Shown piece after piece: positions 10,125 to 64,000 of a DNA stretch of 64,000 nucleotides (positions are counted from its first letter, which is position 1; the number at the start of each line of letters is the position of its first letter). This DNA comes from Dipteris shenzhenensis (lineage: Eukaryota). Location: assembly GCA_047967505.1 (NCBI GenBank), contig CM106538.1, one strand, 5' to 3'. The position numbers were made by a program, and so were the translations under genes. A model generated the notes under the pieces. It did not search any database. It saw only the letters and a list, made by a program, of their open reading frames with translations, and was not told where the DNA came from.

Positions 10125-10578
10125 AATAGCCCTGGAAGGTCGAACCAGCAGCATCTCTAGAACAAGCTTCCATAAATGCCAACCCTCCCTCAACCCCGCA
10201 AACCTACTCCGTGCCCCTACCAAATTCACAAAACCGTTTGCATCCTCTTTGTAATCCACGAAAAGCTCTGCTTGCAACCATGACATCTAAAAGAAGACAG
10301 ATCTGGGGGCACAACAACACGATATATTTTGCCAGGGTAGTGGTGTTCAAAGTACTCTTGTAGTGGTCTCGTCTTTGCTACTAACGTCCTAGGAATCCCA
10401 TGAATCATAAGTGTAAATGCAACAATATAGTTTGTTGTTACCTCTCCATGAAATCGTGTGGATACAAGCCTTTTATCCAAAGCTTGTATACACAGATGCA
10501 TCACTCCCACCATTGCAACCATGAACAAAAAATGGCCCCATAATAATGAAGAACCCTTTTCTACATGTATAACTATGG
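10125..10578 (-). pseudogene. Captured fragment of an OSCA4/CSC1-like (At4g35870-type) channel gene
   Basis: IHVEKGSSLLWGHFLFMV..STRF..AFTLMIHGIPRTL..PLQEYFEHHYPGKIYRVVVPPDL matches the OSCA4.1 N-terminal region as I recall it (HIKKGSGLLWLHF..FTIMVQGLP..YPGKVYKFIVPMDL). Truncated at both ends. Confidence 0.75.
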
Positions 10579-10579
10579 C

Positions 10580-10894
10580 CCGTTGCGTGGGAGGGAGGCT
10601 GCATGCAGGAGGGAGGCAAGGCAAGCGAGGGAGAAAGGGAGGGAGGCGAGGTGAGGAAGGCAAAGCGAGGGAGGGAGGTAGAGCGAGAGGGAAGGAACGA
10701 GGGAGCGAGGCGAGGGAGGGAGGCTGCACGCAAGAGGGAGGTAGGCGAGGCGAGCGACAGAGGGAGGGAGCGAGGGAGGGAGGCGAGGTGAGGGAGGCAA
10801 AGCGAGGGAGGGTAGAGCGAGAGGGAAGGAGCGAGGGAGCGAGGCGAGGGAGGGAGGCTGCACGCGGGAGGGAGGCGAGGTGAGGGAGGCAAAG
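10580..10894. repeat. GA-rich tandem repeat, insertion target of the LTR element; resumes at 20549-20692
   Basis: Units such as gggaggcgaggtgagggaggcaaagcgagggagggtagagcgagagggaagg occur on both sides of the insertion. Confidence 0.85.
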
Positions 10895-11368
10895 TGTTAG
10901 CCCTCTCTACTCTGAAGACTAACTCGAAACGCACTACTGCGACAGATTTACATGCGTAATCGTACTTCAGAACTGCGTATGAAAATTCATAGAGTAGAAC
11001 AGTGATCGACAGAATCATTCATGATAAAACAATAAGGTAGATGCAATAGAATCTCTGTATTACATTTCTCCGAGCAGTACAACACCGTACTCTCTGATAC
11101 ATAGCACTGATCCTTGCTCCGATCCTCATCAATGAGCCCCCTGAATGATCGCTCTCTTCTCTCTTATCTAACCGGCACACATAACTCCTTCACGGTTGCC
11201 GTGACGGTTGCCGTGCCTATTCAGTTCTCCGCCTAGTCCTAGAACTTCCGTCTTTTCATATCTTACTATAAACTAGATACAACGTATTAATGATAATGAT
11301 CTAAGGACTAATGATCTAAGGACTCCCCCCCTAGTTCCTCTTTGCTGTTGCTGCTTTTGCCCTTAACA
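10895..11368 (-). repeat. 3' LTR (474 bp)
   Basis: tgttagccc...cccttaaca, near-identical to 20070-20543. Confidence 0.97.
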
Positions 11369-11370
11369 CT

Positions 11371-11384
11371 TGGCACTCCCGGTG
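11371..11384 (+). other. Second, inverted PBS-like site at the position where a PPT is expected
   Basis: + strand reads LTR-aca ct TGGCACTCCCGGTG; the element-sense strand reads CACCGGGAGTGCCA, like a tRNA 3' end. No purine run abuts the 3' LTR. Confidence 0.6.
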
Positions 11385-11425
11385 AATCGGATTCCGGATC
11401 CGCATCCGAACCCACCGGTTCTCCG

Positions 11426-13810
11426 CTACGGTTCATCCTCGACGTCGCCACCGTCATCGTCCGCCGCCGTCGCTGCTGCCGCTGGAACTGCTGCAGCCGC
11501 CGGCGCCGGTACTTGTACTGCCGGAGCCGCTTGCGCCGGTCGAAGTAAAGGTAGCTGCTGCGGGTTGAGAGCATGGGCATCCACAAAAATTTGGAGCTGT
11601 CCATAGAAAGGTGGTGCCGCCGCCCCCGCCTGCTAAGCTACTGCCGCCATCCGATGAATATAGCGGCATGCTGTCCGCAGGTCGACCAACAGAGCTGCTC
11701 TCTCAACATGACTCGTTCTCCGCAGCTGTTGTAGCTCCTCTTCATGCAGTCGGGTCTTCTCAGATAGAGCGAGTTCGAGATCGGTTACCCGCATAGTGCG
11801 ATCTGCTTTCTTCGCCACACCATCCAGTCGTTTCATTACCCGCCCCAATTCCTTGGTTTGGGCACCTGTTGATTGTTCTGCCGTAGTAGCTCTGAGCTTC
11901 AGCAAATCGGCCATGAGGCTCTTCACCTCAACTTCATGTTGATGGTGCTCTTCTTTCCGGGCGAGCTTGAGTGCCAACAGCTGAGATCTGGCATCCTCAC
12001 ACTGCTGTTGCACCACCGCGACGTGTTCTTTCAGCTGCAAAAAGTGCCTTGCGTCAAAGGATTCCCCGTCCGCTGGCTCCGGAAAAGCTGCCACAAAAGC
12101 GGCTGCTGCGTCCGCTTGGGGTCGTGGCTTCATTGCGGGAACCTGTGCGATCTCGGGTCTTTTTCCTCTGGCCTTCGCTCGTCGGAGGGCTTCTTCCAGT
12201 TCGGCGATCCGTTTGACATAGCCTTCGGAAGAATCCACCGGTCCCGCCGCTGTCTGCTTCCCGAGAGTATTTGCCGATGTAGAACTTCCACCCTCCAATT
12301 GTGCTGCAGTTTCCGTCACCGGTACTGGTGGTAAAAATGCTGTTCCTGCGCCCCCTCCCGCCGGATCATCCTCATCCCTCCGGGCCAACCGTCGATCGAG
12401 AGGCCTGCAAGCCCGCTCCAGCTCTACGCGCAATTGACGTTGATGATCAAGAAAAATACCCTGCATCTCTGCGACGAAGGCTTCCGATAAATCCAACAAA
12501 AGTGCCTCGTCCAGCATGCGTGTAGAGCTAGAGGGTTGCCGGTACGCCATCACTTCCGCTTCCAACAACTGCACCCTGGCGGTCGCAGTTGTAGCCTTCT
12601 CCGTCAATTGTTCCGTCAGCCGCAGGTGTTCTTGAGTTTGGGCGACAATCGCCGTCCTTGCTTCCTCCATATCCTGCTGTCGCCGTGCATCCATCTGTTG
12701 GAATCGTAACAACTGCTCCTGCAGCTGTTGATTGCATTCGAGCAGCCTGGCATTTTCCTGGCGCAACCTCGCCTCATTCTCCTCCAGCTGCCCCTTCTGA
12801 AAACATTGGAGCAAGCGCTCCGCCAACCGTCGTGCCGTGACCAGATCATAGGTCTCCACCGGCGGAGATAGCTGCAGCTCACCACTCCCCCTTGGGACTA
12901 CACGGGTTTCCTCCTGACATGCCTGTCTCCTCGAACTGTCCTCCCGAGTGTGGACTGAGCTTTCCCCTGGCAAGGCCTCCGCTTCCGGGTGGGTTTTCTT
13001 CAACATTGCTCCGTCCGGCACAAGAGCCAACTTTCTTTTCAATAAACTGGCCATGCGGCTCGATGTTGCTGAGACCGCTGGCCTACTCCTCTGGCTGCCC
13101 TGTGGAACTTCTGCCGGAACCACCACCGCAGGTACTACCGCCGTAACCTCCACCGCAGGTACTACCGGAGTCACCTGGTTCCTTGGCATCAGAGCTCCCT
13201 CCGTTGTTGATCTTGCTGGTTCCACCTCCTTGGACTCCTTGTCCGAAGCATCGTCTGTGGACTCCTCCACCTCCACATACGACCCTGGGACTACCGGTTC
13301 CGCATCTGGTCCGAACAAAAGAAATAAGACTTGCCCCATCTGGGATGTTGCCGTTGGCTTCAAGAGCTTCTTGGCCACCTCCAGAATTCTGTCCGCGATC
13401 AGCTTCGCCCAGGGAACCGGTTTCCCTTGCTCCGCCCTCTGGAAATAGGTAAACTGGGTCTGTCCCAGTAGCTCTGCTTTCACCTTCTGCCAGAGTGCCT
13501 CCGCAATAAACTTGTAGCAGGTCTTCTTCGAAGCATCCAGCTTCTTCATGTTGTACTCCCCCTTGCAACCTGCGCCGAGAGCTGCCTCCATGGCACTGCT
13601 GGTAAGCTTCGTGACTTTGCATGGACCATCCACCGGCAAGTGCAACCGGGCCGCTACCAGCTCCTTGCACAAGGTGAAAGTCTTTCCATACACCACGACC
13701 TTGCGCCCGCGTGCAAGCTGCGCCAAGATATCTTGCGCCAATGGATGAACTGGTGTCGTAGCCCATGGCAAACCCGCGAACTCCACCAGACGAGTTCGTG
13801 TCAGCCAAGA
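11426..13810 (-). CDS. Extra ORF (Athila/Tat eORF-like N-terminus plus long coiled coil), in frame with pol; internal TAG at 11633
   Basis: The 717-aa ORF 11633-13786 extends in frame up to the TAG at 13811 and down to the TAG at 11426 (QAGAAAPPFYGQL..DVEDEP*). N-terminus VVVYGKTFTLCKELVAARLHLP; heptad-rich C-terminal half. Confidence 0.75.
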
Positions 13811-16800
13811 CTACACAGCCTCATCCCCAACAGGTAACGGATTGATCAGATGGAAGACCACCATAGCGGCGAGAAGCTGGGATGCGAGGGAGAAGAGTTC
13901 TGGAAAACAAAGAGTTGGAAATAAGCCCCCTTTTGCTTCCAAATTGCCTTTTGGATGCCCTGGTGAACTCCTTGTTTGCATGCAACGATCAAGTGTCCCA
14001 TCATCTTGATAAAAGCCGCACTTCGAAGATTCAGTAGATTGCATGGCGGCGTCCTCGCTCCGCAACACGAAGCTTTGCTCCCACCGTTTCTCGGAATAAA
14101 GTGAGTGATACCACACGTGCGTACTAATAGCCCCCATCATCGGTTTCTCCACCGAAATGGCTACAAATGCATTTGAAATGATCTTCACAGGTGGTATCTC
14201 CGGAAATGGGTAAGGTGGCATGGGCCCTGTATATGGTCGGAGACGAAATCCATTTACCGGCTTCTGCAACAGCTCCCCCTGTAGTGTTCCTAATCGGAAC
14301 GTGCCGTCACCATAACGCTCCACCACCCAATACGGACCTCCCCACCGTAACTTCAGCTTACCCGGATGCGGACCCATCCGAGTGTTAAACAATATCACGG
14401 CATCTCTCCGTTTGAAGGTCTTCTTCTTTGAATGACAGTCCACCCAGACCTTCCGTCTGTCCTGGACTACCTGTGCAAGATACGCACTGTTGAACCGCTC
14501 CTCACCCAGCCGATCCAGCTGTTCAATCCTCCGGTCTACGGACTCGTCCTAACCCAATTTCTCTGCCGCTGCAATCCGCAGACTCGGTACTAGGAATTCC
14601 ATGGGGACCACTGCTTCAACTCCGTAAACCAACTTGAATGGCGTGAACCCCGTCGCAACCTTATAGGAAGTCCGGAACGCCCATAATGCGGAGTAAAGTT
14701 TTTCATCCCAATCTGTCCGATTTTCATTGACCAGCTTTTTCAGAATGACTAGCAACACCTTATTCGAGGACTCCGCCTGTCCGTTTGCCTGAGGGTAATA
14801 CACTGTGGACTTCTTATGAATGATTAGGTGCCGGGTAACCAGTTCCCGTAACACCGCATTAAGGAAATGCCCACCTTGATCCGTGACGAGCTCAACCGGA
14901 CATCCGTACCGTGTCATAATGGCTTCATAAAGGAATCTGGCCACAGCCTTTGCCGAATTATCCTTCAGTGCTCTGGCCTCCACCCATTTGGTACAGTAAT
15001 CCGTCGCCACCAGGATATACCGGTTACCTGTCCTCCGCGCCGGCGGCGAAAACGGACCTACAAAGTCCAGCCCCCACTTCATGAACGGTTCGAGGGCCAG
15101 TATGGGATTATGCGGCATCCGGTCCCGACCTGATGGCTGGCCCAACCTCTGGCACACATCGCATCTTTTGACGAACCTATGCGCATCCCCCATTAATGTT
15201 GGCCACCACAGACCTCCTTAGAGTACCTTCCGTCCGGTTACTTCTCCTGCGAAGTGTCCACCGCTGATTCCTTGGTGAGCCTCTTCCAGGATGACCTCCT
15301 GCTCATGTGGGTACACACACCGTCGCAACACACCATCTAGCCCCTGCTTATACAATTGGTCAGCAATGATCCGGAAGTCTCTGCTCTTGAGCGCGAGCCG
15401 TTTCCGCTGGTCTCGCGACATTCCGTCGCGCATCTGGCCCGTGTCGACAAAGTGAAACATGTCGTCGTACCACGTCTTTGGAGCTGCCGGTACCACCGCC
15501 TCCAGTTCGAACAGCTGGGCATCCGGAAAATCGTCTTCCACACCCATCGGGTCTTCGCCAGATTCCAACCGCGAAAGGTAATCCGCTACGGCATGTGTAC
15601 TTCCTGGTCGATGGACCACCGTGAAGTCGAACTCCTGTAAAAGCAGCATCCACCGGGCCAACTTTCCAGTGAGCTCGGGCTTGTGTACCAAATACAACAA
15701 GGCGGAATGATCCACATGAAACGTGAACCGATTCCCCAACAGGTAGTGACGAAACTTTGTTACGGAATAAATCATCCCCAATGCTTCCCGCTCCGTCGTA
15801 GAGTAATTCCGTTCGGCTTTTGACAACCTGCGACTTGCATAATACACCGGTCGGAACCACTTGCTTGTCGCTTCCTGCATGAGGACACTACCAATAGCCA
15901 CGTCCGAGGCATCCACGAAGACATGAAACATCTTCGTCCAATCTGGCGGCTGAACCACCGGTGCTGTCGCCAACATCAGTTTGAGCCGTCGAAAAGCTAA
16001 GTCACAAGCAGGAGACCAGACTACCGGTACTTTGTTGAGTTGGTCATACAGTGGTGTTGCCACATCCGCCAGATACCGCAGCATTCGGCTGTGCCATTTA
16101 ACCTGCCCTAGGAATCTCCCGAGCTGCTTACCGTTGCCAGGAACCTTTGCCTGCCGAATCGCTTCGACCTTCGCCGGATCTACCGCAATGCCTTCCGCCG
16201 AGACAATGCAACCCAGCAGCATACCGCTGCCCACGGCGAATGCACATTTCATAGGGTTCAGACACAACCGTGCCTCCCTACACCAGGTTAAGCATTTCTT
16301 CAGATGCTCAAGGTGCTGCTCGCGACTCCCGAAAACACTGAAATCGTCCAGAAATACCTGCATAAAGATTAGTAAATAATCATGAAATATTTCTTGGACC
16401 ATGCGTTGAAATGTTGCCGGAGCATTCTTTAGCCCAAATGCCATCACCAGGAAAACAAATGCTCCCCACTCCGTGATGAAGGCTGTTTTCTCTCGATCTT
16501 CTGGTGCCATCTGCACCTGGTTATACCCACTGAAGCCATCCAGAAAAGAATACATCTCGTGACCTGCCACTGTATCCAGCATAGTATCATTAAACGGCAA
16601 TGGAAACGGATCCGTGATTGTCGCCGCGTTAAGCTTTCTGTAGTCAACACAGACCCGCAACTTCAAATTCTTTTTCGAAACAATCACTATTGGCGAAAGC
16701 CACGTTGCACGGTCAACCGGATAGATAAACCCGACCTTTAGCAGCCTGTCCAGCTCCTCCTTCACCCTCTGGGCATAGTTTGGGTTCATTCTATACCGTT

Positions 16801-19800
16801 GTTGCCGAACCGGTATCGCATCCTTCTGCAGATTGATCCTGTGCTGATAGAATTTGGGATCGATGCCGAGCAAATCTTTGTAGTCCCAGGCGAACACGTC
16901 TTTGAAGGATTTCAGCAATGTCTCCAATTTTCCCCGAAATCCTTTATCGAGCTTCGCACTGACACGGACGTTCTTTGGCTCCTCCTCCGTCCCGAGGTTA
17001 AGATCCAGCAGCTCGTCTTCTTTGACCCTCCGCGAGCGACGGAGTTCCTGCTCGAAAACTCTTTCCGCCTCCGCCACTCCCGCTTCGTCCGGCATGTCTC
17101 CTGTGCCTTCCGGTAGACTCCCTTCGACTGGTTCTTTCGTGGAACTGGATGACTCCTGCGTAGCCGAGGGAATCTGATGCTGATATTGCTTTAAAACGGC
17201 AACCACATCGACCTCGAACAAGCTTACCAGCTCCGTATTCCTACTGAAGTAGTCATCCTCCTCTTCGACCCCCATTCCGTCCATCATATGGATACCTTCC
17301 GCCATCGTCGGTCGGAATGGTGTCCTCAGCCCTTGTTTGGTATGTACCGAGAGCTTCAGCTTCTTTTTTCCTTTCCGAATGGTGATGCGGTCTGATTGCC
17401 AGTCTTGTTTCACACGGGCCTGCCGCAACCACGGTCTTCCGAGCAATAACGGGTATGACCCGCTAATATCCTCCATCTGGAGAATCACCGCAGCGATTTC
17501 GAACTTCACGCCGCAAACCTCCATTTTCAATCCACGGAGCAATCCTAACGGCTGCACTCTCCGTTGGTCTGCCATCCGAACGGCGAAGGGTGCTGATTCC
17601 CATTTTGTGATACCCAATGGCACCAGCATTTGTTCGGACAGGATGTTGACCCCAGACCCTCCGTCCAGCAACACCCCTCCCACACGGCTGTTCTCCAGTG
17701 TTACGGAAATTACCGGGACCGCTTCGTCAAAAACAGGAGGCTGTACTTCCGCTTCAGGCTTTGCAGATCCGTCTGACGACACTTCCATTGTTACCGCTTC
17801 CATCTCCGACTCCATCGCCCTGACTGGTTCCGTCAATTGTTTGATGAGAGAACTCCGGAAATTGGGTACCAATGCTAACAATTGCTCCATTGTCATGTGT
17901 ATTTGCTGTTTCCGCAAATCCTGCCATAAATCATATGGTTCAACACCCTCCTCGCCGGTCATCAGGCTGTCCTTCTGACTGGTAGGTAGACAAGTCGCTT
18001 CTGGCTGCTCTCCTTGCAGGCGCCTTGCCACCTTCGCACCATTCTCCGTCACCGAGACTGCCTTTTCCGTGCTCGGCCTAGGTAACACCGTTGGGGTTTG
18101 CTGGACCCATTCACCGACCGTCGACCGCACCTTTTGTTGTGCCTGCCAGTCCAACGCCGTAGGTCTCCCCTTCTCTTGCTGGGCTTTGTATTCCCGCACC
18201 TTTTCCTGGGATCGTGTGACCACGAGCACATCTCCGCTCGCACTTCCTCCCACTTTGCCTTCAACAGGGACACCCGCCGGTACTTCCGGTACTTCTTCGG
18301 ACTTCGGACTAGGCTCCTTGCTATCCTGTTGCTGACTGGCATCATCGCATTCGATAATCAGAACCGCATTCACTGCTGGTGCGGACTTGCCATCTCCAGA
18401 TCCCCGGGTTGCTTCCCTTTCCGCCTTGTGGCGCTTGAATAATTCGCAATCTACCTTTCGATGTCCGGGTTGATTGCAATAAAAACATAGGAACGTCCGT
18501 TCCCCTGCTGGTTCATCTGCACCTGTTCCAGCCGTTCTCGGCCGCCAAGGTCTTTTCGCCGGTGCGGCTGGTACCGCGGCTGGTGCTGCGGCTGGTGCCG
18601 CAACTACCGCCGCCACCGCTGGTGTCGGGGCTATTCGTGCGTTATAGCGGCAGATCTCCGTGGTATGCGTCGCTGTTTGGCAAATCGCACACCACCGCTC
18701 ATTCAAACCGCATTCCTCTGCTAAGTGTCCTGCATTCCGGCACCGATTACACCAAGTATCCTTGCGAACTTTTGAAGAGGACCCTATTCCACTATCCCAG
18801 CTTTTGGCTCCGGCAGCAGATCCTTCCGGAAATGACTTCCCTGCCGCTTTTCCAGCCTTCCGCCTCATGGAACGTTTGTCCTCCTCCTCATCCGACTGAT
18901 CCGACTCCTCCTCATTATCGGTATCGGAGTCTCCCTCAGCCTCCTCATACTTCACTTTTCCTTTCCTTCCCTTGGAAGTAAACAGAACTTGTTCCGCCCT
19001 CACCGCTGCTTGGACGACTTCTTCCAATGAAAGAGCTTCCAGATCCAACGATGCCAGGGACCTTTTCAATCCTTTATTCAGCCCCTCCATGAAGTAAGCA
19101 TTTTGGATGGGGACTGCCGGGGTAGTTGTTGCATCGAGGCGGCGGATCAACGACCGAAACCTGGCCGCATACGCCTCCACTTCTTGGTTCTTCTGTTCCA
19201 GTTTCCCCAGTTTGGCCAGGACATGAACACGGGTCTTGTCCTCCCGAAACCGGAGCAAAAAGGCATCCCGCAGTAGATCAAACGTGGCGAAATGGGTAGC
19301 TCCATATTGCGCGATCCATACTGCCGCCTGCTTCTGCAGTGTCGGGATGAAAGTCGCCATCTTCATAAGATCTGTCGCCTGCACTGGTGGAGCCGTATTC
19401 ACCATCCATGCCATCTCAAATGACAGTATATGTGCATCCGCATCCTCCTTATCCCGTCCCGAAAACTTGGGGTACTTCACCGTCATCCTGGGTACCAGTG
19501 GTGGAATAGCCGCGCTACTTACCGCCGGAACTCCACCCCCGCCTCCGCCTCCACCGCCTCCACCTCCCCTACCGGGATCTGGTGACGGACTTGGGGCTCC
19601 GCTTCCTGCAGGCACACCACCCCCCCGTCTCCTGGGACTCGGTGGTGGGGAATTCCGCAACGGTGACGCTTCGTCTTCCGGAGGAGTACTTGTTAAATCG
19701 AACGGGCTACTGCGTCCGGAGGATTCGCCTTCCTCCTGAACACCGGAAACGACTGGACCTTCCTCTCCTGGGATCAGCGGAGGTGTGTCAGAGCGGCTAC

Positions 19801-19963
19801 TACTCTCACTATCCGTGAAGAAGCCGAAGAGAAGATCACGTTGAGCCACATATTTGTCATGCCGTTCCTCGCGGGTTGTACGTGCCGATACTGGAGTTGC
19901 AGGCTACCGAGGCCGTTCCGGAGAGCGCGATGTTCCCCCTGGCGCACTCCCAGCGTCATTCAT
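13811..19963 (-). CDS. Gag-Pol polyprotein with in-frame stops at 19904, 15218 and 14549
   Basis: Three CCHC knuckles, protease LLDGGSGVN, RT FLDD, RNase H FVDASD, integrase HHCC plus WGLDF/TDQG/GQAE, and GPY/F motif WGGPY. ORF-track pieces 15218-19849, 14549-15193 and 13811-14443 share one frame; in-frame ATG at 19963. Confidence 0.92.
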
Positions 19964-20050
19964 GCGCTAGTCCATGCACCGAGGAATCAGAGTATTACAG
20001 ATGGGGAGCATCCAACCTCTCCGGGGTATCCACCGCGACAAACATGGAAA

Positions 20051-20066
20051 TCTTCCGTGGTCGCCA
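20051..20066 (-). other. Primer binding site (probably tRNA-Arg)
   Basis: TGGCGACCACGGAAGA lies 3 nt inside the 5' LTR; its complement ..CGTGGTCGCCA resembles tRNA-Arg 3' ends. Confidence 0.8.
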
Positions 20067-20069
20067 AAG

Positions 20070-20543
20070 TGTTAGCCCTCTCTACTCTGAAGACTAACTC
20101 GAAACGCACTACTGCGACAGATTTACATGCGTAATCGTACTTCAGAATTGCGTATGAAAATTCATAGAGTAGAACAGTGATCGACAGAATCATTCATGAT
20201 AAAACAATAAGGTAGATGCAATAGAATCTCTGTATTACATTTCTCCGAGCAGTACAAGACCGTACTCTCTGATACATAGCACTGATCCTTGCTCCGATCC
20301 TCATCAATGAGCCCCCTGAATGATCGCTCTCTTCTCTCTTATCTAACCGGCACACATAACTCCTTCACGGTTGCCGTGATGGTTGCCGTGCCTATTCAGT
20401 TCTCCGCCTAGTCCTAGAACTTCCGTCTTTTCATATCTTACTATAAACTAGATACAACGTATTAATGATAATGATCTAAGGACTAATGATCTAAGGACTC
20501 CCCCCCTAGTTCCTCTTTGCTGTTGCTGCTTTTGCCCTTAACA
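20070..20543 (-). repeat. 5' LTR (474 bp)
   Basis: Near-identical to 10895-11368 and adjacent to the PBS. Confidence 0.97.
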
Positions 20544-20692
20544 CAAAGCAAGGGAGGGAGGGAGAAAGAGCCAGAGGGAAGGAGCAAGGGAGCAAGGCAC
20601 GGGAGGGAGGCAACACGCAGGAGGGAGGCTATGCGAGCGAGGGACAGAGGGAGCAGCGAGGTGACGGAGGCAAAGCGAGGGAGGGAGGGAGA

Positions 20693-21026
20693 TAATTAAA
20701 CTCGTGAAAATGAAAGGCTCCTAGACCCCTTTCATCGATGAAAGGGGTCAATTGGCCTTTCATTTTCGTGAGTTTAATTAAGAAAATGAAAGGCTAATAG
20801 ACCCCTTTCATTGATGAAAGGGGTCTATTGGCTTTTATATTTCTTAAGGGCTTTGGCTTTTATATTTCTTAAGGGCTTAAAAGGCCGTTTCGTCGATGAA
20901 AGGGGTCTATTGGCCTTTTAAGCCCTTAAGAAATATAAAACCCAAAGCCCTTAAGAAATATCGATGAAAGGGGTCTATTGGCCTTTTATATTTCTTAAGG
21001 GCTGTGGCTTTTATATTTCTTAAGGA
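20693..21026. repeat. Nested palindrome / foldback array with core cccctttcatcgatgaaagggg
   Basis: An ~88-bp imperfect palindrome at 20693-20780 centred on ATCGAT; further full or half cores at ~20801, ~20890 and ~20960; inverted tatttcttaagggct arms. Confidence 0.9.
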
Positions 21027-40365: not shown

Positions 40366-42170
40366 AAGAGTTTTCCCATTTTTCGAGCGAAGCAAAATCC
40401 GAGCGAAACATTGCAAAAAATGTCTAAATTTTGAGTTTCCATGAAGAGATTTGAATCTTTAGACTAGACCTTATGATTTTCGTACTATCGTCTCTACCAA
40501 CTTTTGCCTTCTGAAGGTTTTCCTTTGGGTTTTTCTAATTCTTCTTGTTTGCTTCATCTTTGTCACTTCCATACTTCCTCCCTTGAACAACTTTGAGGTC
40601 AAAAATAACAAGTACACTCTCTCACTTGATCTTAATCTCTAATTTCTCCAGTTTTGACAAAACAAAAGCTTCTTCTGTTTCATTGTTGCTCTCTACTCTC
40701 TCTTCTTGCATTGTTCTTATTGTTTTTCTTCAACCCATCTATTTCCTTTGTAGATTTGCTCCCAGTCATTATGAACAAGATGGTTGTTGTCTATGGTCCC
40801 GAAGTACAACAAAAAATGCTATTGGTTTTCAAAGAGGAGACCAATGAGTTGGCTCTTGACACCCTGAGAGTATCATTTGATTTGCAAGATATGCCCTTCA
40901 CATTGAAGCCGTTGGGAATTGCTGTTGAGGACATTAAGCTAGAACCTATGAAGCTTCCAAATGGCGACTCAGGTTATCTGATTGATCCTGGTTTTAGTAG
41001 CACTTATAAAGTTTTCAAGGTTCCGTCATGCTCAAGAGTGAGCATAGACGTTGATGAAGATGTTTCTATGCCAAAAAATCCAAGCTGCAACTACAAAGTT
41101 TACAAGGGAGTGTCACGCTCAAAAGTAAGAATAGACGTTGATGAAGATGTGCCTATACAGAAAAACCCAAACTCCTACTTCAAAGTCCACAAGAGAGCTC
41201 CTAGCTCTAAAGTGAGTATTGACGTTGATGCAGATATAGGCATGGGGAATCTGCCAATTGCAAGTGTTCTTGAACTGATACGTTCTTTGCCTCAGGGTTC
41301 AAGTTGCGTTCAGCATTGCAAAGCATTACAAAAACTATGTAGCTTGATGAGCTTCCTAAGACATATGATAGATATGTTGCATTTGAACTTCCTCCGTGTG
41401 GTTCGAAATCTTCAATGACTGGAATGGAGAGGAAACATGCCCGTCATCACTGGATTGATTATGTTACTTGTACTAGTGATAGTTTTCTTGGGGTGGTCCG
41501 TTTCAGCAGGTGTGCAGGAAATTTGAGATGTATCAATATGGAATGTCCCTACTAATCTAGAATGAATGTTTCAAATGTGACGCAATGGAAGGGACTATTG
41601 AAACGAGTATGTGAGCTTGGCTTGATCAGGGAAGAGGATGGAAATCTTGTTTGTCACCATTATGTGCTAGCTCCAAAATGTGTTTCTACTTGTCCTGATG
41701 TGATGTACTTTTGCATTCCCAAGGACCACGCAACCACAAGATGTGCTATTCATCTTGGAAATCATCCTCATCCCCATGAAGAAGGTACCAGCAGAGTGGA
41801 TGAGGACAACATTGAGGAGATGTTAATGGCAAGAGCGAAGATGAACCCATTCACGATGCTAAAGCAACTTGTCACAGGTGTGGGTAGAGACATGATATTG
41901 GATATGCTTATGGGTGATCCTGTGGGAGAGACCACAGAGATTGGAGATGAGGAATTTTCCAAGTTGTTGGAGTTTGCAACACCCCTGTCTAGTAAGAAGA
42001 GGATTGAGAAATGATTGTAGCATGCAAAAAAGGCCCAAGGCATGACATCCAAAGGTTTTGAGGCTGTGCTAGATCTAAAAAAGAAATGCAAGTACCCTTT
42101 CATTCACAATGTTTTGTTTCATGGACAACTAGATGCTCAACATCAACTACATGTGTTCAAATCTTCTTGT
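40366..42170 (+). mobile_element. Second GCM-type MULE-like transposon, 5' portion
   Basis: Terminus caagagttttcccatttttcgagcgaa; HHWIDY..GVVRFSRCAGNLRCINMECPY..TQWKG and CAIHLGNHPHP are homologous to 37100-37700; truncated before the DDE core. Confidence 0.7.
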
Positions 42171-50898: not shown

Positions 50899-51236
50899 AA
50901 AGAAACTCTCATCAACCACATACACTCCAAATGTACTAATGTGTTGTCTAAAGGATATGTACTCTTTCAAATTGGAGGGTTGCTTCACCTTAAGCTATCT
51001 AGTCATGTTGCATTTAAATAGATGAATCATTGAGATGTTGCACACTGAAAAGAATACAATTGAGATGTTGCACTAAAAAGAAACTCTCATCACCTCAAGA
51101 ATACACTCAAAAGCTATTCATGTGTTGTCTCAAAGGTCTATATTCTTTCAAATTAGAGGGCTGCTTCACCTTAAGCTATCTAGTAATATTTCCTTTAAAG
51201 AGATGTATCATTGAGAGGTTGCACACTAAAAAGAAT
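50899..51236. repeat. Direct repeat (~180-bp period, 2 copies)
   Basis: aaagaaactctcatca...ctttcaaatt.gaggg.tgcttcaccttaagctatctagt...ttgcacact.aaaagaat occurs twice. Confidence 0.7.
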
Positions 51237-62050: not shown

Positions 62051-63486
62051 ACCCACACTATTGGGATGCCAACATACACAACTTGGGTGAGAATCACACC
62101 ATTAATTGGCCCCATTGATTGAGCCATACTCTAGGGTGGAAAGGAACATCCAAGGCACATTGATCCAGGCACTTCAACAACATGAAGAACACATGTGCGA
62201 TAATATTGACCACATCCTATGGCAAAGTGCTATCTTTTTCAAGACCTTGTAATTCATTCTGAGGCTTTCATCCACATCGAGTGACTACCATCTTCCTGCA
62301 CTCATTTTCAATGCTAATGGCAAGATCAATGTCCAAACCACAAGCAAACTCTATTAAAGAGTCATCCTCTTAGAGGCTCACCACATATGTCTCTTTGAAC
62401 AGATGGTGGATACATGCTTCTTGGAAACTGAGCAAAAGGTTTATGGTGTGAAGGATTAATTGGCATGTTCCACAACCCACTAGGTTACATGCTTGGCTTC
62501 CCAACTCTATGATCATAATCGGCCATAACCCAAGAATGGGTAATAAAATGGCTCCGGGGGTATGTTAACTCTATGTCAACATGCACTCAAGCAACGTAGA
62601 ATGTGTGTGTAGAGTAGCGGCAAAGCTCTACTTGTACTTACATGAGCCTAGGAATAATCTCTCAAGAATCTCTTTTAGGAATCCTAGGAATCCCTCATGC
62701 GATTCCTATATGCACATCCTACATGCAAGTTCTAGATCTCCTAAATATGCATTCTACATGCAATTCCTACATGGAATCTCTACATGCCATTACTATATGC
62801 GCATCCTAGATGCAATTCCTACATGTAGAGAGAGAAATTTCTACAATTCCTATATGCAAACAAAGAAGATCTCCAACTTGTATAAATATCTCATGATGGA
62901 ATGAAGCCCACACTCTTTGGGGCATTGTGTTCAGTTCTACTTTGGTGTGCTAGGTAATTGTCTCCAATGTCCATGCTCCCTTGCACTCTCACGTCTAATA
63001 GCATATTCTACCCTTGCCTCCTACTCCCTCCTCCTCCAAGCCTGCAACTCCTCCTGGGTCCTCTCCTCTTCCCTTCTTCTCTCTCTCCCACAACCCCTTT
63101 GCTCTTGCACCTTTCTCTCCCACTCCTATGCTTCTCCTAAACCCTTACTCTCCTAGATTAGTTTTTCAACCCTTGACCTCCAAGATCCATGAGGGAGATG
63201 AGTTCACCACCATGTACTTTATTCTGAACCTTGGATCCTCTTTCTAACCTTGAATCTCCTTCTGAATTCCAAAACCTTCTTCTGAATATTGAAACTTATT
63301 CTAACCTTAAATCCCCCATGGAGGCAAAATCCTTCATTCTCCCAACCATGTTGTTGAATTTTTGTTTCATCAAGCATATGTGCAACATCTACTTTTCACA
63401 CTTGAGCCTACATCTCTTACCAAAATATATTCCAAGATCCTATGCTGCACATATTCTTCTACAACAACAATGACATTGATATATCA

Positions 63487-64000
63487 GTACGTGATGAGAG
63501 ATTTGAACAACGGAAGTGGAACGAAAGAGGGTGAGAGAGAGGGAGAGCCAAAAGAGAGAGCCACACAAGTTTTGGTGGGTGCAAAAGACCCTAATCTTCT
63601 ATGTCATCCATATGTATATGTGTTTGAGTATTGTACATAACTGGGGTTAAGGCACAGTGTCCTTTAACCACCACAACCTCCCACTTAAAGGCCAATGTGC
63701 ATTTAAGGGAGAAGAACCAGTGGACATACTATCCAATGCCCAACAATACATGACAATACTCAAACCACTGATAGTACATGATGAGAGGTTTCAACAACGG
63801 AAGTGGAACGAAAGAGGGTGAGAGAGAGGGAGAGTCAAAAGAGAGAGCCACACAAGTTTTGGTGGGTGCAAAAGACCCTAATCTTCTATGTCATCCATAT
63901 GTATATGTGTTTGAGTATTGTACATAACTGGGGTTAAGGCACAGTGTCCTTTAGCCACCACAACCTCCCACTTAAAGGCCAATGTGCATTTAAGGGAGAA
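63487..64000. repeat. 287-bp tandem repeat running off the window end
   Basis: caacggaagtggaacgaaagaggg at 63508 and 63795; the copies are nearly identical. Confidence 0.9.

Follow-up and report, generated by a model that had tools for sequence, protein, structure and literature searches.

A conserved mixed-sequence motif ending in CCA as the putative plus-strand priming site in a clade of non-chromovirus Ty3/gypsy elements

How is the second DNA strand primed in an LTR retrotransposon in which the sequence abutting the 3′ LTR is not a polypurine tract? To our knowledge, priming of the plus strand from a polypurine tract (PPT) that resists RNase H is treated as universal among retroviruses and LTR retrotransposons, and a PPT is what annotation tools search for. 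The plus-strand primer's 3′ end sets the edge of the LTR at U3. The question is raised by a Ty3/gypsy element located in the 64,000-nt stretch of Dipteris shenzhenensis DNA analyzed here (the window). Comparison with related elements indicates that the stretch preceding its 3′ LTR is, as judged from sequence, a conserved, clade-specific plus-strand priming site and not a polypurine tract.

The element spans 9,649 nt of the minus strand (10895-20543) and is delimited by a pair of direct repeats. Its features, all on the minus strand, are as follows, beginning at the 5′ end of the element.

20544..20548, minus strand: target-site duplication CTTTG on the 5′ side; the same pentamer lies outside both LTRs.
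20070..20543, minus strand: 5′ LTR of 474 nt, TGTT...AACA, identified as a direct repeat, with 3 differences from the 3′ LTR.
20067..20069, minus strand: 3-nt spacer CTT leading from the LTR to the primer binding site (PBS), from sequence reading.
20055..20066, minus strand: PBS TGGCGACCACGG, with 11 nt complementary to the end of human tRNA-Arg(UCG/CCG); the same 11 nt occur in the related locus L003.
13811..19903, minus strand: gag-protease-RT-RNase H-integrase in a single frame with in-frame stops, assigned by the Pfam families Retrotrans_gag, zf-CCHC, RVT_1, RT_RNaseH and rve.
11633..13810, minus strand: post-integrase open frame (ORF3) of 725 aa in the pol frame, without a Pfam family, from translation and Pfam search; weakly alike to the related element L088.
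11379..11418, minus strand: imperfect hairpin CCGGTG..TCGGAT / ATCCGA..CACCGG, its 3′ arm overlapping the conserved motif (folding z −2.2).
11371..11384, minus strand: conserved 14-mer CACCGGGAGTGCCA, from a pattern scan and the comparison with L088.
11369..11370, minus strand: dinucleotide AG separating the CCA from the LTR, shared with L088 and mirroring the CT(T) spacer on the PBS side.
10895..11368, minus strand: 3′ LTR of 474 nt, identified as a direct repeat.
10890..10894, minus strand: target-site duplication CTTTG on the 3′ side, from sequence reading.

The LTRs are those of a Ty3/gypsy element, with TG..CA ends, a length of 474 nt and the flanking duplication CTTTG, and the Pfam domains gag, zf-CCHC, RVT_1, RT_RNaseH and rve follow one another in the Ty3/gypsy order. 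The protease has no Pfam match at E ≤ 0.01, and the sequence LLDGGSG...LLGRPWL is legible in the translation. Gag, RT, RNase H and integrase are all encoded on the minus strand, in agreement with the orientation given in an earlier note on this DNA, and this fixes which site occupies the PBS position and which the PPT position. The gag-pol-ORF3 frame (11633-19903, minus strand) comprises ~2,750 codons with three in-frame stops, one within the integrase zinc-finger region, one past the integrase core and one ahead of ORF3. Three stops alongside only 3 differences in 474 LTR nucleotides mean that the copy is young and has taken few hits, or else that read-through is programmed. ORF3 aligns with the corresponding extension of L088 at 23% identity over 186 aa (E 5e-7), in the N-terminal domain only. 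The L088 extension is 1,011 aa long, fused to pol (L088 12701-15736), and likewise belongs to no Pfam family; a search for ORF3 homologues among proteins of similar length found none. By eye, the remainder of ORF3 of the window element is coiled-coil-like. In the gag region at 19530-19570 (minus strand), where ~13 glycine codons occur, contigs from unrelated organisms stack as a low-complexity artefact.

The Tat-type archaeal RNase H (aRH) is absent from both the window element and L088, which carry RT_RNaseH / RT_RNaseH_2 alone; in Neumann et al. 2019 (PMC6317226), the Tat clade is defined by this extra archaeal-type RNase H domain. The PBS TGGCGACCACGG and the missing PPT set the element apart from Athila in a comparison of these two features. 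The element is embedded (10226-10894 and 20549-20700) in a C/T-rich array of CCCTCCCTCGC-like units, repeat family D3. Tandem duplications also occur elsewhere in the window, at 63486-64000, 50920-51236 and 41000-41173, with periods of 287, 181 and 87 nt.

On the sense strand, the 3′ LTR is preceded by ...GGTGGGTTCGGATGCGGATCCGGAATCCGATTCACCGGGAGTGCCA-ag-TGTTAAGG or, in a longer reading, ...TTCACCGGGAGTGCCA-ag-TGTTAAGG; the short form of the junction is CACCGGGAGTGCCA-AG-TGTT. The earlier note had reported that no PPT is present here, and indeed no purine run of at least 7 nt turned up when the 300 nt preceding the 3′ LTR were searched. The last 12 nt before the LTR are 75% purine and are broken by T and CC. 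The site was also correctly described as not purine-rich and as ending in CCA 2 nt from the LTR, the 14-mer occupying 11384-11371 and the AG 11370-11369, and the mirror-image TGGC reported on the inner flanks of both LTRs is real. Of the two hairpins proposed, one at each site, only that at the 3′ site withstood comparison with shuffled sequences. The 3′ hairpin (11418-11379) consists of 12 bp in two 6-bp steps and has a folding energy of −24.5 kcal/mol (z = −2.2), with 8 of 200 shuffles folding equally well, whereas the PBS hairpin (z = −0.21) is no better than shuffles, 70 of 200 being as good. The 14-mer is present in a single copy in the window. Taken alone it is within chance, a match with at most two mismatches occurring in 22 of 100 window shuffles, and its significance derives from its conservation in L088.

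At the other end of the element, downstream of the 5′ LTR, the sequence reads ACA-ctt-TGGCGACCACGG, the only match in the window compared with 0.03 expected by chance, in line with the PBS described in the earlier note. Its first 11 nt (TGGCGACCACG) pair without a mismatch with ...cgtggtcgcca, the 3′ end of a human tRNA-Arg(UCG/CCG) as given in bioRxiv 10.1101/2021.02.06.430044. L003, a 63% identical relative, has these 11 nt behind its LTR as well. The PBS of the window element is probably of the ordinary tRNA type, for an arginine tRNA. The PBS of L088 differs, reading ct-TGGCGACTCCGCTGGGG (TGGCGACTCCGC), and the relatives L009 and L010 possess an Athila-type PBS plus a PPT. An 18-nt PBS, TGGCGACTCCGCTGGGGA, is common to L088 (6311-6328) and L016 (about 1730), two elements with only ~40% alike pol. 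Across the wider group the PBS type varies (arginine-like YCG, a second arginine-like type, and Asp/Asn) and the LTR ends are constant, ...AACA. The PBS of HERV9, tggcgaccacgaagggac, is complementary without exception to the final 18 nt of human tRNA-Arg(CCG/UCG) as printed in bioRxiv 10.1101/2021.02.06.430044. It has been argued that this PBS merits the label W rather than R (PMC4724089), a label that conflicts with the match to that tRNA-Arg.

A protein search groups the window element with gypsy elements of bryophytes, ferns and gymnosperms, with ~49% identity to Riccia and Marchantia proteins and 66% to metagenome proteins. A scan of metagenome contigs provided 80 loci (L001-L080), and a scan of contigs from prokaryote genomes provided mis-binned eukaryote-like contigs, including L088. 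The closest metagenome relatives (L001-L004, L019, L036, L037, L056 and L068; 57-65%) are short and never reach the 3′ LTR, and L005 and L006 (47%) likewise end before it. There is no DNA match outside pol between the window element and loci L001-L080. In IMG/VR no close protein relative was found, and the degenerate junction pattern was without a match.

The closest relative with a recovered 3′ junction is L088, a complete element with ~65% identical pol and 64% integrase identity, whose pol frame of 2,444 aa is unbroken. Its LTRs measure 1.65 kb, versus 474 nt in the window, are 93% alike and are unrelated to the window LTRs. Its sequence at the 3′ junction is ...GCTCCACCAGGTGTGCCA-ag-TGTTGGCGG (short form CACCAGGTGTGCCA-AG-TGTT). 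Of the 16 nt that precede the LTR, 14 are identical to those of the window element, and both the AG and the TGTT are shared. The 14-mers differ at two internal positions, which lie 3 nt apart. Over the rest of the 200 nt upstream, 66 of 155 positions match, and no sequence similarity is found upstream of the 16-nt block. When the window 16-mer was slid over the 2,590,380 positions of all fetched loci, at least 14 of 16 matches were reached only at the L088 junction. L088 also lacks a PPT, no purine run of at least 7 nt lying nearer than 162 nt to its 3′ LTR. The CCA end, which the earlier note proposed to seek in relatives, is kept, and both clade junctions recovered carry the CCA block despite diverged LTRs. 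Neither outcome that the earlier note named as refuting its reading was encountered. The proposed conservation of the hairpin was not borne out: the only local stem in the L088 junction region, of 7 bp, is situated upstream of the motif, and its fold is not significant (z +0.40, 131 of 200 shuffles). The T-arm-like GGTGGGTTCGGAT of the window element is missing from L088 as well.

Two plant-type gypsy elements were encountered on contigs filed under bacterial metagenome-assembled genomes (MAGs), L088 on G001:C10 and L089 on G002:C103. The GC content of G002:C103 is 62-64% over 170 kb and 45% in the last 3.4 kb, which hold the element; that of G001:C10 climbs from 42% to 53-58%. Both contigs are likely chimeric or mis-binned.

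In an integrase tree of 13 rows, restricted to alignments of at least 300 aa and hence without L002, L019 and L131, the window element groups with L088, L001 and L004 in a clade supported at 97/99. The junction was recovered for two of these four members and bears the motif in both, giving two independent junctions in all. The motif of the clade is CACC-R-GG-W-GTGCCA, after which come AG and then TGTT, where the LTR begins, and from these sequences the motif appears to replace the PPT in a non-chromovirus Ty3/gypsy clade. Outside the clade, G-rich tracts lie 0-3 nt from the LTR in L009, L102, L103, L105, L114 and L131, so that, leaving L088 aside, 6 of 11 loci that have an LTR pair carry such a tract (L103 and L114 represent one family). 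Among the same 11, the LTR boundaries of L034, L039, L047 and L066 are too uncertain to score, and L041 has a G-rich tract 4 nt from an uncertain LTR boundary. L141 and L145 (48-50% integrase identity) contain the G-rich tracts AAGGGGGGGAGGA and GAAGAGGGGAGG, respectively, ~30 nt past the pol stop, with the LTR start taken from a single copy. The clade motif together with ordinary G-rich PPTs outside the clade indicates that the non-purine junction is, on sequence comparison, a derived and conserved trait of one clade. As for abundance, 15,399 contigs of one sequencing run align to the element at 80% or more, and the family is present in four runs. These contig numbers and the intact pol frame of L088 are the basis on which the elements of the clade are judged successful. 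One contig of run X1 departs from the letters of the element past the LTR start and may represent the flank of a solo or 5′ LTR, or a variant junction.

Because the primer end defines the LTR edge, the plus-strand primer is expected to end 0 to 2 nt from the TG, which would make the conserved block the plus-strand primer site. The somewhat favored source of this primer is the element's own RNA, cut by RNase H. The primer would then be an oligoribonucleotide of element RNA ending in ...GUGCCA (or ...CCAAG); in full it would read ...GAUUCACCGGGAGUGCCA, the element sequence upstream of the CCA being ...GAUUCACC. RNase H would spare the primer and cut precisely by sequence and not by purine content, for which imperfect PPTs elsewhere offer a comparison. 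The conserved AG would correspond to the two extra bases trimmed by integrase, and the linear DNA would finish in ...AACA-CT at its two 3′ ends, CT being the dinucleotide that integrase usually trims. This AG/CT symmetry of the ends suggests that the primer ends at ...GCCA-3′.

An element-encoded primer needs no new player, and the arrangement resembles PPT priming in HIV-1 and Ty3 (Metaviridae) in that the site is immediately upstream of U3, the 3′ terminus of the primer dictates where the LTR begins, conservation at the junction continues into the LTR start and two extra bases lie beyond the TG. The tract itself, GGGAGUGCCAAG in the window element and AGGUGUGCCAAG in L088, differs from those of PPT systems in its fixed internal UGCC and its CCA end. 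RNase H would thus have to spare a tract with an internal UGCC, and we know of no RNase H-resistant primer that, like this one, contains two C's and a U in its interior. Ty1 reportedly has an imperfect PPT with flanking determinants of plus-strand priming, as Wilhelm et al. are said to have described in 1999, and is similar in that a short, partly purine primer plus flanking sequence can serve an LTR retrotransposon. However, the Ty1 tract is not known to contain cytosines or to end in CCA, and Ty1 belongs to a different superfamily; here cytosines and a CCA end are found in another superfamily.

The element-encoded primer also fits the lineage-wide conservation of the junction in ATHILA, where families and species of the lineage retain the sequence at which the internal region meets the 3′ LTR (bioRxiv 10.64898/2026.03.20.713144), and it fits the PPT-flanking motifs reported for fission-yeast elements. 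The resemblance to ATHILA extends to a junction kept as the LTRs diverge and to a non-chromovirus plant gypsy element with extra coding capacity behind pol. The same preprint gives ATHILA a PBS TGGCGCCGTTGCC (tRNA-Asp/Asn) and a junction with a real PPT (10.64898/2026.03.20.713144), in contrast to the arginine-type PBS and missing PPT found here. Since ordinary PPT junctions are also conserved across families, conservation cannot separate a tRNA primer from an element-encoded one. What the element-encoded primer does not require is a G-CCA end that is exactly tRNA-like, nor the mirror position of the PBS.

These two properties are what a tRNA primer would explain. A host tRNA, possibly an arginine tRNA, with the 3′ end ...CACCGGGAGUGCCA could pair with the minus-strand DNA and be extended to plus-strand strong-stop DNA, an alternative that is considered unlikely. 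The 3′ site presumably resembles the T-arm/acceptor end of plant tRNA-Arg(TCT), and we take the ends of eukaryotic tRNA-Arg(UCU) types to be similar. The G-CCA end 2 nt from the LTR mirrors the CA-N2-3-TGG at the PBS, and the block of 14 nt has the length of a PBS, accommodating the CCA, the discriminator, 7 acceptor and 3 T-stem bases. Both differences between the window element and L088 fall at would-be acceptor positions 67 and 70 (the numbering is inferred), where isodecoders commonly differ, and the site is constant while the PBS switches tRNA between the two elements. The PBS of the window element is itself arginine-type, to the extent of the 11 nt complementary to the human tRNA-Arg(UCG/CCG) end cited above.

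In retroviruses, every isoacceptor for a given amino acid can be packaged by way of the synthetase. In its fullest form, the alternative would have both strands tRNA-primed in a bryophyte-type gypsy clade, with an arginine-type tRNA at the PBS and a second tRNA ending ...CACCRGGWGUGCCA placed 2 nt from U3 and replacing the PPT; this scheme, too, is regarded as doubtful. The likeness to tRNA-primed PBSs, whose plant types are treated in Neumann et al. 2019 (PMC6317226), consists of a CCA 2-3 nt from the LTR terminal dinucleotide and a block of 11-14 nt conserved across families. Unlike a PBS, the element RNA is here in the tRNA sense and not complementary to it, such that a tRNA could pair only with minus-strand DNA.

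Several observations weigh against a tRNA primer. No tRNA with such an end was seen in the window, in L001-L080, in two long MAG contigs or in four MAGs. The 64,000-nt window holds no tRNA gene, and ARAGORN detected no tRNA on loci L001-L080; the two long MAG contigs yielded one tRNA-Gln only, in the bacterial-GC part. A T-loop-plus-acceptor pattern gave 5 matches in the four contaminated MAGs, none of them a tRNA, and a reversed-pattern control performed similarly. In a literature search with 8- to 14-mers from the two motifs, all matches were to primers, Cas12b guide RNAs or a Toxoplasma U6 snRNA. If one tRNA were common to the hosts, it would be mismatched 7 nt from its 3′ end in at least one element. 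Both elements would have T at position 61, which is C in tRNAs, and the T-arm-like sequence of the window element is not shared by L088, the region of which folds no better than shuffles. Neither the window junction nor the L088 junction matches the Rfam tRNA model (RF00005) at E ≤ 10. A literature search on plus-strand primers found no precedent for a tRNA-primed plus strand.

The functional unit might instead be the overlapping hairpin, for example a tRNA-like minihelix with a single-stranded ...CCA tail recognized by the reverse transcriptase. The window hairpin beats 192 of 200 shuffles, but the L088 stem lies upstream of the motif in a fold not above shuffles and similarity ceases upstream of the 16-nt block, making this reading very improbable. 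Least credible of all is conservation for a non-priming reason, either as the end of a small protein or as a chance match: although both elements read P-G-V-P-S-V with both differences at synonymous third positions (CCG/CCA and GGA/GGT) in a frame that is open in both (109 and 325 codons) and continues into the LTR, differences 3 nt apart necessarily both fall at third positions in some frame, the translations are alike nowhere beyond those 6-7 residues, the block stops exactly at the LTR boundary, and chance is excluded by the single position in 2.59 million, the homologous junction, that reaches 14/16.

Two further arrangements were considered and rejected. In the Ty3 bipartite PBS, a tRNA-related sequence near the genome 3′ end is complementary to the 5′-PBS tRNA. 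The junction described here is similar in having a tRNA-related sequence near the genome 3′ end; unlike that of Ty3, it matches neither strand of the acceptor end of the PBS tRNA. A bipartite PBS, in which the site pairs with the 5′ strand that the PBS tRNA has set free, was discarded because in neither element does the site correspond to the 3′ end of the tRNA to which the PBS points. A PPT inside U3 was also discarded: the LTR start is purine-rich, but it is the 3′ terminus of the primer that fixes the LTR boundary.

Hepadnaviruses illustrate that plus strands can be primed by something other than a polypurine tract; their primer is the capped 5′ end of the genome, translocated. What is new here is a successful clade that lacks a PPT and keeps a 16-nt mixed-sequence motif ending in CCA, in what would be the plus-strand priming site. 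Either RNase H selects the primer by sequence and not by purine content, as the element-encoded primer would entail, or a tRNA primes the second strand, which, if true, would be a new replication scheme. LTR annotation based on the PPT will miss or mis-score such elements.
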